A stretch of DNA of 64,000 nt from a phage. The position numbers and the translations under genes were made by a program. The notes beneath the pieces were generated by a model. The model saw only the letters and a list, made by a program, of their open reading frames with translations. It searched no databases and was not told the DNA's origin. The stretch is taken from sequence record NC_100327.1. One strand, 5' to 3'. Positions 2,591 to 34,648 of the stretch are shown here, in pieces (position 1 is the first letter of the stretch; each line of letters begins with the position of its first letter).

Positions 2591-5500
2591 TTACTTCAAT
2601 TTCTCTTGCAACCCAGTAACAACCTCTGTCAATTTTTTAACCTGCTCCTCAAGGGCGGTTATTTTATCATCCTGTTCCCTGCAAACCTGGACAAGCAAGC
2701 CTGTTACAGCTGCGTAATCCACGCTGTAGAATCTTTCCTCTGTTATCAAAGGAGTTCCATCTTGATCAGGGTTTGGGATTTCCTTTCTTTGCACGAAAGA
2801 GCTAACCGCTTCCGGCAGAGCTTCAAGCACTTCTTGTGCTATAACACCTGCATAAGGCATACCGTTCTCTTTAAGAGTGTAAGTATAACCCTTCATCTTC
2901 CGGATAGCTTCTAACGCATCAGGAATAACAGCTATGTTATCTTTCAGGTCTCTGTCAGAACTCTGATTGACAGATGTGCAATTCACAGCGCCGTTTACAG
3001 AAAGATATCTTGATTTATCCGGCAAGGTACCGCAATGCCATACCCAATTTGATTGAGACTCGTCAAGAACCTTAAACTCTAACACGTTTGGACGATCTCC
3101 TGTGCTGCCGTTACCCCAATAATACATATGGGCGGCATTAGCAGGCATGTTGCCACCGTTATTAGTAACATGGCTTCCAGAAATATACACCTTTAACTCT
3201 GGGGTTGGTATTTCCCCTTCTGGGGTTGTTCCTCCATACCTGAAGCTAACACCATTACCACCTGTTTGGGTCCACGGGCCCCAAGTGAAGACCTGTTTCA
3301 CCATATTCCCATAACGTGTGAATCTATCGCCATGGTAGGTAATATACTCTTGAACACACCCATTACCGTTATTGGCGTTATTTTGCAACACAATAAGTGT
3401 TCCGGCCTCATTTACGGGATAATGACGATCATATGTTGCATCATTATTTGCAGGCTGATGGTAAATACCTTCCCACAATCCGTGATAGGTGTTAAGGTCT
3501 GAAGAACCAAGACCTTGACCCCTGTGTTGCATGGCCTTATTCCAGGGATGGTGATTACCACCTTCTATAGACCTGGTGTATAAGTTACTTTGTCTGCCAG
3601 CAATCTGGAAAGCGTAGTTTCCCGAGAATCCTACAGATAAACCTCCTACAACCATGGTGTCTTGTGGACCGTTAACATTACCAGCCATTATTTTTGACGG
3701 GTTATTAGGCCCGAACTGGTTGTTCCAGTCTCCACCAGTATGACATACAAAACCACCTGGGGCTGAAAAAGTACCATCCTTATTGAAGTTGTAGAATCTA
3801 TGAGCTGTGCCCACAACATCTCGAACAATAACTTGACCAGCCTCTGGAGTAGACCTGAACTCTGCTTGACCTTTAAGGCCAGCACCATTACCGCATTTAG
3901 AGGTAAACGTGCCGTTAGTTAGATCCTCTGTTCCATCTGATGCACACTGGAATCCTGCGTTAGAGAATAGCGCCTTTCTAGGACCACTGTAGCACAAATA
4001 GTCAAAACCGTCAGCCCATAGCTCTACTTTAGGCATGTTCATTTTGCTCATTATCGCATAGCGTTCAGCAGTGCCTACATAGTGCCACTGTGTGCCGCCG
4101 CCAGTGTAGAACCCAGAGGTACCTTTGAAGTCAACAATAGGTCTGGTGTTGGTATTGTTATCTCCGAGAACAGCCAGATTTAAATCTGCTGACTGGAGAG
4201 GTGCAACGAACTTAACACCGTCCTGATTGTCTGTTACAGAGCCAACCTGGTAATCTTGCTCCCTGGTAAACACCTCGACAACATTTCTACTTGCGTATAT
4301 GCTGACAGGGAAAGCACGCGCCTCTGCATAGAAAGCAACATATTCTTGTTTACCCCTTGTTGGAGCAACCATCCCAAGAAGTGCTTTTTCATTCTGGTAG
4401 AAATTTACTACCCCGTAGAAAGAGTCTCCTCTGTCTGTCCAACCACCAGTTCTATAGTGACACTGTAAGGTAGCACAGTTCATAGGGTCATTTCCAGATG
4501 ACGATCTGGTAACTATGGTAATATCAGTACCAGTTGCTGGAGCATAGTACGGATCTGTTCTAACGATGATCGGGTAGTATTTCCCATCTTCCATCCCTGC
4601 GGTTCTTGGCAGTGTTAAGAAGTCTTTCACACCTGCTGCTATAGGAACTTTGAACAGATTCTGAGCATCTGCTAGAGTTGTAGCCCCGGTGCCACCTGCG
4701 GCTTGAGGTAGAGGTTCCCACTTGGCCTTCCGGTTGTTATAAACACCCCATTCCAGAGTGCCGTTACCGGATTCGTCCATCCCGCCATCCCAGATAACCA
4801 TCTTGGCGGCTTTCTTAGATCCCCAGAAGCCTCTTTCTGCTCCTGAACTACGTATCCACTCTCCAAGTCCCCAGTTTGTCAGCTGACCAGTAAGATCCCC
4901 AACCTGCATGTATTTAGGGCAGTCTAATACACCGTCTTCGCGGAAACCCAAATATCTATGAGTTTCAGATCCTTTTGCACCTTTGTGGAGGTGGATTGTC
5001 AACCAAGCCTTATTGTCGTTTCTTACCTCAGAGTAGATCCTATATCCATGCTCAAGGACACCGTCAGCGCTGTATTTGTCCCCGTTAACAATACCGGATG
5101 CTGACTTAACATCAGCAGAACTTTGAGACAGGTAAAGGTGCCCGAAGGTAGGAGAATTTCTAGACCCGAGACCGATGTGCGATCTAAAGGTATCATCGTT
5201 ACGAGGTCTAACCATCGGCTGCCATGCAGTCCACTGATTTGTGTTGGCCTGATAGGTTCTCAAATACCAAACATCTACGTTAGAGAATGGGTAGTATTCC
5301 TGACGACAACCTGTACCGCCGTTAGCATTGTTCTGCCAAACAATCAAGTGACCAGCACCAGAACCTGCAGGGTAACCATTTGCCTCAGTTGCATAAGCAG
5401 TCATCGGCTGGTAGTATACACCATCCTGATTACCAGTCAAGTTATTGATATTGAAATTTGGCTCAAGGGCTGCACGTTGCTTATAGAAAGCACCGATATT

Positions 5501-30944: not shown

Positions 30945-31021
30945 TGGTCTCCACGGAGTGATTCGAACACTCGACCTCCTGATCCCAAATCAGGCGCTCT
31001 ACCAAGCTGAGCTACGCGGAG
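30945..31021 (-). tRNA. tRNA-Pro (anticodon UGG)
   Basis: Manual fold: acceptor CTCCGCG/CGTGGAG with C1-G72, anticodon loop TTTGGGA, T-loop TTCGAAT, encoded CCA. Confidence 0.8.
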
Positions 31022-31032
31022 TATTTATTATT

Positions 31033-31107
31033 TGGTGGCCCTGGGTGGAATTGAACCACCGTCTGGCGATTATGAGTCGCTTGCTTGAACCTTCCAGCTA
31101 CAGGGCC
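31033..31107 (-). tRNA. tRNA-Met (anticodon CAU; could be Ile-lysidine type)
   Basis: Acceptor GGCCCTG/CAGGGCC, anticodon loop CTCATAA, T-loop TTCAATT, encoded CCA. Confidence 0.7.
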
Positions 31108-31108
31108 A

Positions 31109-31184
31109 TGGTGCTGATGGCAGGACTTGAACCCGCAACCTATTGATTACAAATCAATTGCACTACCGATTGTGCTACATCAGC
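31109..31184 (-). tRNA. tRNA-Thr (anticodon UGU)
   Basis: Acceptor GCTGATG/CATCAGC, anticodon loop TTTGTAA, T-loop TTCAAGT, encoded CCA. Confidence 0.8.
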
Positions 31185-31189
31185 AAAAA

Positions 31190-31288
31190 GGTGCTAGGTG
31201 ATGGAATCGAACCACCTATGTATTCAACGACTACCTCGTCTATTTTCAGGATTAAAAATCCTCGCCCTTGCCAAAGGGCTTACCTAGC
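31190..31288 (-). ncRNA. non-canonical tRNA-like RNA (99 nt; identity unresolved)
   Basis: 7-bp acceptor-like helix GCTAGGT/ACCTAGC, D-like hairpin, canonical T-arm (GGTGG TTCGATT CCATC), but ~20 nt too long with a GGATT-TTT-AATCC hairpin in place of a normal anticodon arm. Confidence 0.4.
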
Positions 31289-31295
31289 TCAGTAT

Positions 31296-31382
31296 GTTGA
31301 CCATGTTGCTAGTCGGCGATGACGACTGTAACATTTGATAATCCGGTTCTGCTTCCGACTTTCGCTTAATTACAAGGTCAAC
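31296..31382 (-). ncRNA. structured small RNA candidate closed by a 7-bp terminal helix (not a canonical tRNA)
   Basis: GTTGACC...GGTCAAC terminal inverted repeat with internal hairpins (AGTCG-N7-CGACT); sits inside the tRNA operon between the element above and tRNA-Ser. Confidence 0.3.
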
Positions 31383-31386
31383 AATG

Positions 31387-31477
31387 TGGCGGAGAGTAAT
31401 GGAATCGAACCATCATCGAGTCATCCTCAACGGGACGGTTTTCAAGACCGCTTGAGCACCATTGCTCCCTACCCTCC
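31387..31477 (-). tRNA. tRNA-Ser (anticodon UGA), class II with long variable arm
   Basis: Anticodon arm CGGTCTTGAAAACCG, long variable arm, T-loop TTCGATT, encoded CCA; 91 nt. Confidence 0.75.
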
Positions 31478-31591
31478 TTTATAAATTATACTGATAATGA
31501 CACTGATTTTCGAGCAGTTAGTGACTAGTATAAACGACGATAAATATCAATGCCATTATCTGTATTATTTATGCATCTAAAAATATAAATT

Positions 31592-31678
31592 TGGTGGGGA
31601 GTGGTGGAGTCGAACCACCCGAGTCGCAATGACAATAGATTTACAGTCTACACCGCTACCTCTACGGGATAACTCCCC
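31592..31678 (-). tRNA. tRNA-Tyr (anticodon GUA), class II
   Basis: Anticodon arm GTAGACTGTAAATCTAT, long variable arm, T-loop TTCGACT, encoded CCA; 87 nt. Confidence 0.8.
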
Positions 31679-31682
31679 AATT

Positions 31683-31757
31683 TGGCACCCCGTACTGGAC
31701 TCGAACCAGTGTCAACGGCTTAGAAGGCCGCTGCTTTATCCACTAAGCTAACAGGGC
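31683..31757 (-). tRNA. tRNA-Arg (anticodon UCU)
   Basis: D-arm GCTTAGTGGATAAAGC, anticodon loop CTTCTAA, T-loop TTCGAGT, encoded CCA; acceptor has two G-U pairs. Confidence 0.75.
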
Positions 31758-31853: not shown

Positions 31854-32192
31854 TTAGCTATTGCTAACAGGTTGTATTTCTGTGGTAAATGGCATAAAAG
31901 GTGCTGGTTTTTCAGCCTCTTCTACTACCACCTCTTCCTCTTCACCAAACATCTCATCATATTCTTCCTGCATTCGGTCTGCCTTATCAAGAACATACTC
32001 TGCAATGCTTTGACGAATATTTTGTTTGGTTTTCGGGTCCAACATCAGCTCTCTTAGAACTTTGTGAGCTTCTGGAACCATCGCTATAAAAGATTCCTTC
32101 ATATCGAGGATGTTCTTCTCTAGCTGAATGGCGTTGGACTCCTCTTTCAGAGGTCTGCCTCTACGGCGACGCTTTTTAGTTGTATCCGCCAT
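31854..32192 (-). CDS. hypothetical small protein with basic AT-hook-like N-terminus and acidic C-terminus
   Basis: Track ORF trimmed to MADTTKKRRRRGRP...; upstream part of the track ORF overlaps a GC-rich structured non-coding region. Confidence 0.35.
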   Translation of the reverse strand: MADTTKKRRRRGRPLKEESNAIQLEKNILDMKESFIAMVPEAHKVLRELMLDPKTKQNIRQSIAEYVLDKADRMQEEYDEMFGEEEEVVVEEAEKPAPFMPFTTEIQPVSNS

Positions 32193-32540
32193 GTTTCCTC
32201 CATTATCACGTGATAGGTGGATTTTATCATAGCAAATACTGATTGTCAAGTTCGCCGCAGGGTGGTATTCCCTGCGACTTGTCCAGCGTCCTGGACCAGC
32301 AAGACCCAACAAGTGGGTTTTCCAGCTATACCCATTACCGCGCACAGGCTCGACCTTATTACAGGTTGGCTGGGGTCACATCGTCATGTGCTGGCTGCCC
32401 CTACCATTTTAAGTGTGGTGCACTATCAAGCCCTCTAAGGGGAACTCAGTCTTCTCCGAACCCTGTTTCAAAGCATCCAGAGATAAAGCCATCAAATTCA
32501 TCTTTAAATTGGATATTCATCATGATACACGAAAACAACC

Positions 32541-32783
32541 TCATTGTAAAGCACAAATAAATAAAACATACTTAATTTGTTTGTTATCAGGCTCAGGGTA
32601 GAAGTAGAAGATCTTGCTATCACCGATCTGAACACCACCATCCCAACAACATAGCCCATAACCTGTATTCATACAAGCTAAGTCGTTGGCAAAATCTATT
32701 GCATCATCCAGTGCACGAAATTCACCTTCATCTTCTAAATAATCCTCATTCATGGAACGAAAAACGAGCTTAACCTTAAACAT
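32541..32783 (-). CDS. hypothetical protein
   Basis: 80-aa ORF in the minus-strand operon. Confidence 0.3.
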   Translation of the reverse strand: MFKVKLVFRSMNEDYLEDEGEFRALDDAIDFANDLACMNTGYGLCCWDGGVQIGDSKIFYFYPEPDNKQIKYVLFICALQ

Positions 32784-32859: not shown

Positions 32860-33069
32860 TCAACAGATTCCGGCCTTATCCTTCCTGTCTGCGTATTCTT
32901 TAATCGCAACCTCATCTGCATTAGTGACCAGGTCTTCAAAGTAACTCTCAAGCTCCTCGTCAATGTCAGGAGACCAGCTCTTTTTCCTGTCAGTGTGAAT
33001 TGCAGACTTGTTGAACTTATTACAGTTCTTTGCTACCGGGTTGTTCATTAAGCGCTCCTCAGCGTTCAT
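32860..33069 (-). CDS. hypothetical protein
   Basis: 69-aa ORF overlapping the stop of the upstream gene. Confidence 0.3.
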   Translation of the reverse strand: MNAEERLMNNPVAKNCNKFNKSAIHTDRKKSWSPDIDEELESYFEDLVTNADEVAIKEYADRKDKAGIC

Positions 33070-33637: not shown

Positions 33638-34140
33638 AGCTGCCTCCTCTTCAAGTTATAGAAAAACTCACTGTATCGCTTTGTAACGAGCTTTTCTATC
33701 AAACTGGTGCGATTGCATTACCTGGTATAGTTTATATAGCTGTGGAGCGATTTAGGGGCCTTCTTGTCAGTTTCCACACATAAACTTCATCCAAGCTCGC
33801 GCGGGAGACTCTCAACCGACTCCTTACGGCGCTGGCAAGCTTTCGTCGGTGGTCCACATCAGTGCTCGGCCTTTGGCCTGCGCTATCGCTTCGCTCCCAC
33901 ACATGTTAACAGACCTGCATGTATGAACTTCTGTTATTGTGTGCACCAAGGAGGCCCGGCATCTCGCCCCTCGTAGGCGAGTGCCAATGAAGGGCCGACA
34001 CTGCCCATAGTAAGTAATAAATTTAAAACATGGTACTTAGGATCTAGTATATTCTACATAAGTTAAGTATATGTACTTAGTACCATAAGTACTAGATCTT
34101 TTATTTTTTATTATTTAGTTATTTTAGTTATATTCTTTAT

Positions 34141-34250
34141 GTGTCCGTATCACGGACAGTTAGTGTCCGTATTACGGGCAGATGTGTCCGCGTGACGGAC
34201 AGTAGTGTCCGTATCACGGACAGTTAATAGTATCCGTTCCATGACGAACA
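34141..34250. repeat. array of palindromic iteron-like repeats (TGTCCGT-N3-ACGGACA) with ~21-bp phasing
   Basis: Copies at 34143-34159, 34165-34181, 34185-34201 and 34206-34222, plus a degenerate copy at 34231-34250; adjacent AT-rich tract at 34085-34140. Confidence 0.6.
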
Positions 34251-34297
34251 TAAAACATACGAATCCTTATAGTACAGATATTTAAGTTTTTACTGGT

Positions 34298-34648
34298 CTA
34301 ACCAGTTGTTGACATCCGAATAACTTCTTCTGGTGGCAAAACTTTGGAAAATGTGCATCTTTTACCTCTCCCTTGTGTGGATGTTTCAACCACTCCTGCA
34401 CATTCTAAAGTTTTAACGCACGCTGCTGCTTTTGTTTTCTTTATCCCAACATCTGCTGCAATTTTCCTTGTGCTTGGTGTGAAGCGTGAATTTCCTCCAA
34501 GCTTATACCAGTTGTGCAGGTAGCAGTATACGATCTTGTCATACAAGTCAAGAACAACAACCTCCCCAGTTGTGTCATTCAAAACTTTTGACATAGATAG
34601 TATTTCAAGGGGGACTTTAAGATATAGCAGCTTATCCCCATCTTTCAT
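34298..34648 (-). CDS. putative helix-turn-helix DNA-binding protein
   Basis: 116-aa ORF; RKIAADVGIKKTKAAACVKTLECAGVVE segment looks like an HTH; gene ends ~50 bp from the iteron array. Confidence 0.35.
   Translation of the reverse strand: MKDGDKLLYLKVPLEILSMSKVLNDTTGEVVVLDLYDKIVYCYLHNWYKLGGNSRFTPSTRKIAADVGIKKTKAAACVKTLECAGVVETSTQGRGKRCTFSKVLPPEEVIRMSTTG

Follow-up and report, generated by a model that had tools for sequence, protein, structure and literature searches.

A covarying RNA three-way junction within a composite interval of an rV5-like coliphage

Anatomy of the interval

We analysed a 64,000-nt stretch of phage DNA (NC_100327.1; hereafter the window) and followed up the interval at 32193–32540, which had been read as a spacer between two small minus-strand genes. 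Judged from its sequence, the DNA is that of an rV5-like coliphage (Vequintavirus), and 118 GenBank phage records were 98–99% identical to it across the 1.35 kb surrounding the interval. Eighteen records labelled "Campylobacter phage" (MG0656xx) were about 98% identical to rV5-like coliphages over the same region, which suggests that they are mislabelled or contaminating phage sequences. The genes around the interval are all on the minus strand. It is flanked by homologues of JES2013 ORF70 (32541–32783), an 80-aa gene that forms the upstream neighbour, and ORF69 (31854–32192). Beyond ORF69, seven tRNA genes are clustered at 30945–31757, the cluster beginning approximately 570 nt downstream of the RNA motif described below. 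At 31190–31288 (minus strand) lies a tRNA-like gene to which ARAGORN assigned a four-base anticodon and which scored 35.5 bits with the Rfam tRNA model, with a 26-nt insertion. In the GenBank records of close relatives, most of the gap between ORF70 and ORF69 carries no annotation.

The interval proved to be composite, consisting of a translationally coupled 32-aa gene, a non-coding RNA of approximately 190 nt (32445–32256, minus strand) and a strong early promoter. The sequence-only reading had taken it for one structured spacer RNA of approximately 350 nt; since 32249–32221 is a promoter and 32544–32446 an ORF, the structured non-coding part amounts to approximately 190 nt, with the gene and the promoter making up the remainder. 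The whole 348 nt was not exceptionally stable when compared with shuffled sequences (z = −1.6). The G + C content was 55% in 32256–32445 against 43.6% in the window.

The 32-aa ORF (MRLFSCIMMNIQFKDEFDGFISGCFETGFGED; 32446–32544, minus strand) begins with an ATG that overlaps the TGA stop codon of the upstream 80-aa gene (ATGA). Among seven rV5-like relatives, its variable sites were distributed over the three codon positions as [0,1,6], five of the seven being synonymous, a third-position bias like that of ORF70 [3,0,17] and ORF69 [4,0,17]. Frame and stop codon were kept in eight sequences, the product matched phrog_6828 (E = 7e-9), and one record (MH752840) already annotates the ORF. These results establish 32446–32544 as a real small protein gene coupled to the one before it, and they add it to the annotation of rV5-like phages. 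The statement that the coding strand carries no ORF was thus wrong for the 5′ 100 nt of the interval. A protein gene with conserved synonymous-site variation was found in relatives at 32446–32544 only, the RNA region showing indels of 1, 3 and 10 nt and no codon periodicity. A possible weak promoter (TTTACA-17-TATCAT; 32522–32550, minus strand), identified by consensus match (10 of 12 positions), might give rise to a transcript that begins shortly before the RNA.

At its 3′ end the RNA carries a block of three hairpins (32256–32325, minus strand) with a predicted folding energy of −29.5 kcal/mol against a shuffle mean of −20.4 (z = −3.17; none of 200 shuffles was as stable). Hairpin A (ACCCA-CUUGU-UGGGU; 32304–32318), taken from the minimum free energy (MFE) fold, is probably dispensable because a 10-nt deletion removes part of it in one relative (L030). 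Hairpin B (GUCCAG-GACG-CUGGAC, extended by CUUG/CAAG; 32278–32300), supported by both sequence and fold, keeps its pairing through a U-A to U-G change in relatives, and a different stem (UGCUGG/CCAGCA) occupies its position in the sister clade. Hairpin C (CGCAGGG-AAUACCA-CCCUGCG; 32256–32276) ends 6 nt upstream of a −35 box, and its variation among rV5-like relatives is confined to the loop. Two of these structures, cgcaggg/ccctgcg at 32256–32276 and gtccag/ctggac at 32281–32296, lie exactly where the sequence-only reading had placed them, and its judgement that they are not simple terminators was borne out: no T-run follows any of the hairpins, and a terminator scan of 32193–32540 returned nothing. 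Intrinsic terminators were accordingly rejected, as the GC-rich hairpins are there and the U run after the stems is not; hairpin C is followed by GCGAACUUGACA, which contains no U-tract. The 3′ hairpins were the most variable part of the RNA, at 27% when the 10-nt deletion in one relative is counted.

The promoter (TTGACA-17-TAAAAT with TG; 32221–32249, minus strand) matches the sigma-70 consensus at 11 of 12 positions and serves the 112-aa gene (ORF69) at 31854–32192. Only three of 63 positions in the promoter and 5′ UTR were variable among relatives. The PeSL (promoter-early stem-loop) cassettes of T4-type phages consist of a stem-loop that directly precedes an early promoter close to the sigma-70 consensus (PMC4122927, PMC2839356). 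By analogy, hairpin C together with the promoter resembles such a cassette, the likeness at 32276–32221 being a hairpin without a U-tract followed by a near-consensus sigma-70 promoter. PeSLs are dispersed, multi-copy elements of hyperplastic regions, whereas here only the last hairpin and the promoter fit the description. The strong promoters at 32863 and 31844 had, as far as could be seen by eye, no obvious upstream GC hairpin.

A three-way junction conserved in the RNA

The main element of the RNA consists of a variable hairpin, P1, and a 43-nt three-way junction (together 32401–32330, minus strand), defined by covariation. The sequence-only reading had alluded to it merely as "further stems", and the hairpins that it cited are the least conserved part of the RNA. 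The junction core (32329–32371, minus strand), as delimited by our covariance model R1, is near-invariant (AACCUGUAAUAAGGUCGAG...CGGUAAU). It is closed by helix Pc, in which 32370–32367 pair with 32334 and 32332–32330 and G32333 is bulged. P2 (ACCU-GUAAUA-AGGU; 32366–32353), a 4-bp stem with a GUAAUA loop, follows, and is separated by the J2/3 strand CGA (variants CGA, CAA, CGU and CA) from P3 (32349–32340), a 3-bp mini-hairpin with a free loop. The J3/c strand GGUAA (32339–32335) leads back to Pc. All of these elements are on the minus strand.

We aligned 41 distinct sequences by hand. In this alignment P2 was directly continuous with Pc, and Pc had a purine bulge after its first pair. The three inner pairs of Pc were canonical in all 41 sequences, each occurring as four types (AU/UA/UG/CG, CG/UA/AU/GC and CG/GC/AU/UA). 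P2 had the consensus RCCW-GUAAUA-WGGY with two compensatory variants, A-U to G-C in the second PEi20 copy and U-A to A-U in Vibrio phage PS17B-2, and the middle pair of P3 changed from C-G to U-A in seven of the 41. RNAalifold run on a MAFFT alignment gave a wrong outer helix, the closing helix emerging only through alignment by hand. Scored against the junction fold, 90.9% of the cells in the MAFFT alignment were paired (shuffles, 78.4%), and in a model-based alignment of 43 hits 93.5% were (shuffles, 80.0%). The covariation scores were 0.326 for the former (shuffles, 0.103, none of 500 reaching it; slid controls, 0.085 or lower) and 0.337 for the latter (shuffles, 0.096, again none of 500; slid controls, 0.073 or lower), values that reflect a few independent events per pair because the sequences come from only about a dozen lineages. 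The covariation analysis across related phages that the sequence-only reading had proposed thus shows that the junction helices covary, and we regard them, on this comparative sequence evidence, as real helices of an RNA fold. G-U pairs occurred only in the gene-strand sense, and the RNA is therefore read in the direction of the genes.

The fold 32401–32330 was thermodynamically ordinary (z = +0.11). Its evidence is evolutionary rather than thermodynamic, since MFE prediction misses the junction. P1 (GGGG...CCCC enclosing CACAU-GACG-AUGUG; 32372–32401, minus strand) abuts the junction; in nearly every clade it is a stem of 4–7 bp that ends 0–1 nt ahead of it. Because a shuffle test was uninformative here (a 5-bp stem formed in 55% of shuffles), P1 rests on compensatory changes, including some that separate close relatives, exemplified by GGGAAU/AUUCCC versus GGGAG/CUCCC, UGCAA/UUGCA versus UGCGU/ACGCG and AAAGG/CCUUU versus AAAGA/UCUUU.

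The 44 nt on the 5′ side of P1 form a Vequintavirus-specific module (32402–32445, minus strand), recognized by clade comparison and consisting of the hairpin CCCC-UUAGA-GGG (32442–32431) followed by CUUGAUAGUGCACCACACUUAAAAUGGUA. It is near-identical in a second Vequintavirinae-like clade, in which P1 and the 3′ region differ. Among seven rV5-like phages only two of 49 positions were variable in this module, or two of 74 with P1 included, compared with about 8% in ORF70. In the sister clade a promoter (TTGACA-17-TATACT) lies immediately upstream of the RNA, which would therefore start the transcript there. The interval had earlier been suggested to act as a regulatory leader, as a site of processing or as an independent small RNA. 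From that reading a structured RNA, conserved and encoded on the gene strand, survives, and the single 350-nt molecule falls; an independent small RNA would fit the sister clade, which has its own sigma-70 promoter directly upstream. A contig of that Vequintavirinae-like sister group (L013) also contains a group I intron at 3115–3418 (RF00028, 81 bits).

Within the window, model R1 had a sole match at 32371–32329 (63.7 bits, E = 4e-20), and a search of the other GC-rich spacer gave no second copy. That spacer (33640–34297, minus strand) directly follows a replication-initiation-protein gene (34298–34648). It contains three to four inverted-repeat boxes (CTGTCCGTGATACGGACAC and two to three variants) at about 34230–34140, followed by approximately 130 nt of AT-rich palindromic sequence and then approximately 300 nt of GC-rich sequence, and from its sequence it looks like a candidate origin with iterons and an unwinding element.

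Distribution and genomic neighbourhood

With the spacer as query, blastn returned 745 phage records, of which 118 were full-length rV5-like matches and the rest covered about 45 nt only (32373–32329) at 85–95% identity. Approximately 630 were T4-like records, from phages infecting Escherichia, Shigella, Yersinia, Salmonella and Citrobacter, and these were joined by Vibrio and Pseudomonas phages. A second query brought the total to 1007 records and added Klebsiella and Edwardsiella T4-likes, while pattern scans of viral and metagenome contigs revealed further carrier lineages. The motif thus occurs in about 750–1000 phage records, namely those of T4-likes (T4 among them), rV5-like phages, and myoviruses of Vibrio and Pseudomonas. 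Its carriers, on the order of a thousand sequenced phages, include many coliphages that are candidates for therapy. The GUAAUA loop, the GGUAA strand and the P2 sequence were near-invariant in phages that infect Escherichia, Klebsiella, Edwardsiella, Vibrio and Pseudomonas; such near-invariance could partly stem from recent horizontal transfer and not from constraint. Copy number varied, with two tandem copies in PEi20-type phages and, in Vibrio phage PS17B-2, a second GUAAU-type hairpin that substitutes for P1.

Among 185,579 bacterial and archaeal genomes, a strict pattern gave no match and a loose pattern gave six, about the number expected by chance and all of 25 bits or less. Two of the loose-pattern matches, in Pedobacter, lie inside a Gly/Tyr/Pro-rich coding region and were rejected. 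By these sequence searches the family is restricted to phages. The Rfam scan that had been suggested for the interval returned no family there, even at E ≤ 10, and with all 4227 models of Rfam 15 nothing matched over the motif at the gathering score, or in the window at E ≤ 10. Nor did any family match the 151-nt element searched by itself or the 13 homologous loci, the best overlaps being noise of 9–12 bits. ARAGORN and the Rfam tRNA model found no tRNA in the spacer, and no tmRNA was found. Judged by sequence and distribution, this RNA core is a member of a previously unannotated, phage-restricted family.

In 11 of the 12 clades outside the T4-likes, same-strand tRNA genes lie no more than approximately 1.2 kb from the motif. 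It lies inside the tRNA cluster in Pseudomonas phage PsgM04F and in one further locus (L092), and 41–47 nt after a tRNA gene in two others (L034 and L045). The T4-likes are the exception: there the motif is not near tRNA genes and always lies between genes of one long operon, in a short gap after denV or ipII and in gene orientation. In T4 it is located between denV and vs.8 (NC_000866, in the region of about 64,860–64,990, minus strand), approximately 6 kb from the region of the tRNA genes, rnaC and rnaD. Nearly all T4-likes have a second conserved hairpin (AUGYGCCAHGGAAUGGCCC, with GGA in the loop; for example, L003 2567–2590), which follows the motif on its 3′ side at a distance of approximately 25 nt. 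Comparison of neighbours across the lineages revealed no protein family common next to the motif.

In all records inspected, the motif was either unannotated or covered by spurious small ORFs. The annotated start codon of T4 vs.8 (NC_000866, 64,253–64,912) lies inside the P1 hairpin of the motif. Because the 40 codons that this start adds are out of frame or interrupted by stops in DalCa and T2 and are not preserved in PEi20 either, the true start of vs.8 is probably the ATG of MRTFLTG.... Tiny ORFs are called over the motif in the records of T2, Vibrio phage F100 and PsgM04F. The present analysis corrects the annotation of T4 vs.8, T2, F100 and PsgM04F, and a covariance model now exists for the motif. 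In F100, a stretch of approximately 1.2 kb that begins near the motif (L005 1700–2900) contains tiny ORFs only on both strands; it is partly conserved in other Vibrio phages of 137–141 kb and may represent one or more large non-coding RNAs. The tRNA cluster of PsgM04F holds a non-coding block of approximately 275 nt (L006 2056–2330) without an Rfam match, 82–83% identical to sequence of Phapecoctavirus coliphages (ESCO13 and 536P1).

The 112-aa protein encoded downstream of the promoter (31854–32192) belongs to the rv5_gp070 family (phrog_3330) and has an N-terminal KKRRRRGRP, which is Arg-rich and AT-hook-like, and an acidic tail. RGRP is also the DNA-binding core of AT-hooks. Throughout the Vequintavirinae, genes for this protein lie within tRNA clusters, as they do in PVP-SE1, Hena1 and PcCB7V. 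In both Vequintavirinae-like clades the motif is just upstream of a gene whose small product has a basic N-terminus and an acidic tail. The homologues in Seunavirus, Mydovirus, Henunavirus and Certrevirus had no motif within 1.5 kb, and the T4-like, Vibrio and Pseudomonas carriers of the motif lacked the protein. Since protein and motif are not co-distributed, we rejected the 112-aa protein as a dedicated partner of the RNA.

Function and relation to known RNAs

The reading that we favour, with a confidence that falls slightly short of even, is that the motif forms a stable RNA module and, as a decoy or cofactor, binds some conserved factor of the host or the phage. The RNA would be made within early and tRNA polycistronic transcripts, and from its own promoter in the sister clade, and it would act as an RNA in its own right, being neither a terminator nor a leader for one particular gene. 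By sequence-specific binding of a single highly conserved partner it would serve as a cofactor, decoy or sponge; the candidate partner is either a nuclease of host defence or a host factor that takes part in translation, tRNA function or RNA processing. Binding of one conserved partner is suggested because the loop, the junction strands and P2 are invariant while the motif is scattered among unrelated phages, and the variable copy number and the association with tRNA operons also argue for it. An invariant core in phages of several bacterial orders, together with its absence from bacteria and the co-location with tRNA genes, points to an interaction with conserved host machinery or immunity. 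Protection of the 3′ end, or a PeSL-like insulation of the RNA from the promoter that follows, would be the likeliest role of the three downstream hairpins. More tentatively, we consider that the motif may define a new class of phage RNA, exchanged horizontally among T4-like phages, rV5-like phages and Vibrio and Pseudomonas myoviruses and either catalytic or able to capture a conserved host factor, for example a defence nuclease, a nuclease directed at tRNA, or a component of translation or RNA processing. If so, T4 carries an unrecognized functional RNA under the mis-drawn start of vs.8. As T4 is the best-developed phage genetic system, the motif is directly testable.

A role in cis appears unlikely. 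The nascent junction could modify the RNA polymerase that is transcribing it (put-like processive antitermination), the motif could offer a nut-like site to the Arg-rich KKRRRRGRP end of the adjacent 112-aa protein, or it could direct processing; early transcripts would then extend through the tRNA cluster and the genes downstream. Its location between operon genes in T4-likes fits such a role equally well; it always lies on the strand of the flanking genes, inside early operons and with no terminator after it, its size and stem-loops are like those of put RNAs (PMC9378689), and in both Vequintavirinae-like clades it directly precedes the gene for the protein with the basic N-terminus. Against it, four genera with 112-aa homologues lack the motif within 1.5 kb and carriers outside the subfamily lack the protein, and in several clades the motif is not promoter-proximal, being in the middle or at the end of a tRNA cluster. 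No intrinsic terminators were predicted downstream in the window, and the RGRP of the protein is equally an AT-hook core. That the RNA is a small self-cleaving ribozyme or a riboswitch aptamer, with the conserved junction nucleotides as active site or ligand pocket, seems quite unlikely. Variable outer helices around near-invariant junction strands (CGA and GGUAA) would suit it, as would the sporadic spread without a fixed neighbouring gene, which is typical of small ribozymes. No ribozyme or riboswitch model of Rfam 15 matched even at E ≤ 10, no expression platform (terminator or SD-sequestering helix) is conserved across clades, and the clades share no downstream gene. The P2 helix keeps an invariant sequence, which would not usually be expected of a stem with a structural role alone.

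It is distinctly improbable that the interval holds only terminator-like stem-loops and a promoter, as a regulatory or recombination cassette of the PeSL type, with untranslated filler between genes. The position of hairpin C 6 nt before a near-perfect sigma-70 promoter is the PeSL layout (PMC4122927), the hairpin block is significantly stable and the region tolerates indels, but this would account for 32256–32325 alone. For 32329–32445 it is contradicted by conservation of the junction across phage families with compensatory changes, and it leaves the near-invariant 5′ module unaccounted for; unlike the dispersed PeSL repeats, the junction is single-copy in the window. Scarcely credible, finally, is that one strand or the other encodes a protein here (a candidate being the 105-aa ORF at 32243–32560, plus strand) or that the region is a protein-binding or recombination site of double-stranded DNA. 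Over most of the region none of the three plus-strand frames is closed, and some GenBank records place small ORFs over the motif (T2, F100 and PsgM04F, and the extension of T4 vs.8). Against coding stand the 1-, 3- and 10-nt indels of relatives, the antisense frames broken in the sister clade, the length variants of P3 and J2/3 that shift every frame among T4-likes, and the loss of the vs.8 extension in DalCa and T2; against a DNA site, G-U pairs and strand-specific compensatory changes favour RNA over duplex DNA.

Compared with known RNAs, the motif appears, from its sequence, fold and lack of a family match, to be a new family. Short resemblances to 16S rRNA positions 528–534, the 23S rRNA 1093–1098 loop and the anticodon loop of tRNA-Tyr were at chance level or topologically inconsistent and were rejected, as were a similarity to the start of the type I-E CRISPR repeat (GAGUUCCCC), which is not conserved in the sister clade, and hammerhead-like strings in P1 of some T4-likes, which had no Rfam support. 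The searchable literature yielded nothing relevant, either for the exact sequence of the motif or on the denV/vs.8 region, the small RNAs of T4 or the GUAAUA loop. tRNAs differ from the motif in having a four-way junction where it has a hairpin and a three-way junction.

Like the motif, the T4 species 1 and 2 RNAs (rnaC and rnaD) are non-coding RNAs of a large lytic phage in a tRNA-gene setting, and they are co-transcribed with the T4 tRNA genes. The motif differs from them in having no tRNA-like acceptor/T-arm end, and homology was rejected, R1 with filters off scoring at best 7.3 bits on T4 69000–74000. The put RNAs of HK022 are about 70 nt long, have two stems, lie in phage early operons and act without a dedicated adjacent protein gene (PMC9378689). 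The motif resembles putL and putR in its length of about 70–90 nt and its two or three stem-loops; it has no demonstrated sequence similarity to them, is not consistently promoter-proximal, and occurs in lytic myoviruses rather than lambdoid phages. A lambda-type N/nut system was rejected, the adjacent Arg-rich protein not co-occurring with the motif across genera, and no boxA-like sequence was seen on reading the region by eye.

PhiTE, a relative of rV5, reportedly carries a pseudo-ToxI RNA that acts as a decoy against host defence. The motif is like such RNA decoys (PhiTE pseudo-ToxI and RNA anti-CRISPRs) in being small, structured, sporadic in lytic phages and variable in copy number. RNA decoys copy a bacterial RNA, whereas the motif has no counterpart in the 185,579 bacterial genomes. 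PeSLs differ from the three-way junction as well, which is conserved across phage families and present once in the window. A survey of viral metagenomes has listed 10,006 candidate RNAs supported by covariation, some of them near tRNAs (Fremin & Kyrpides 2023; PMC10690425), and the motif might be among these unnamed viral candidates.
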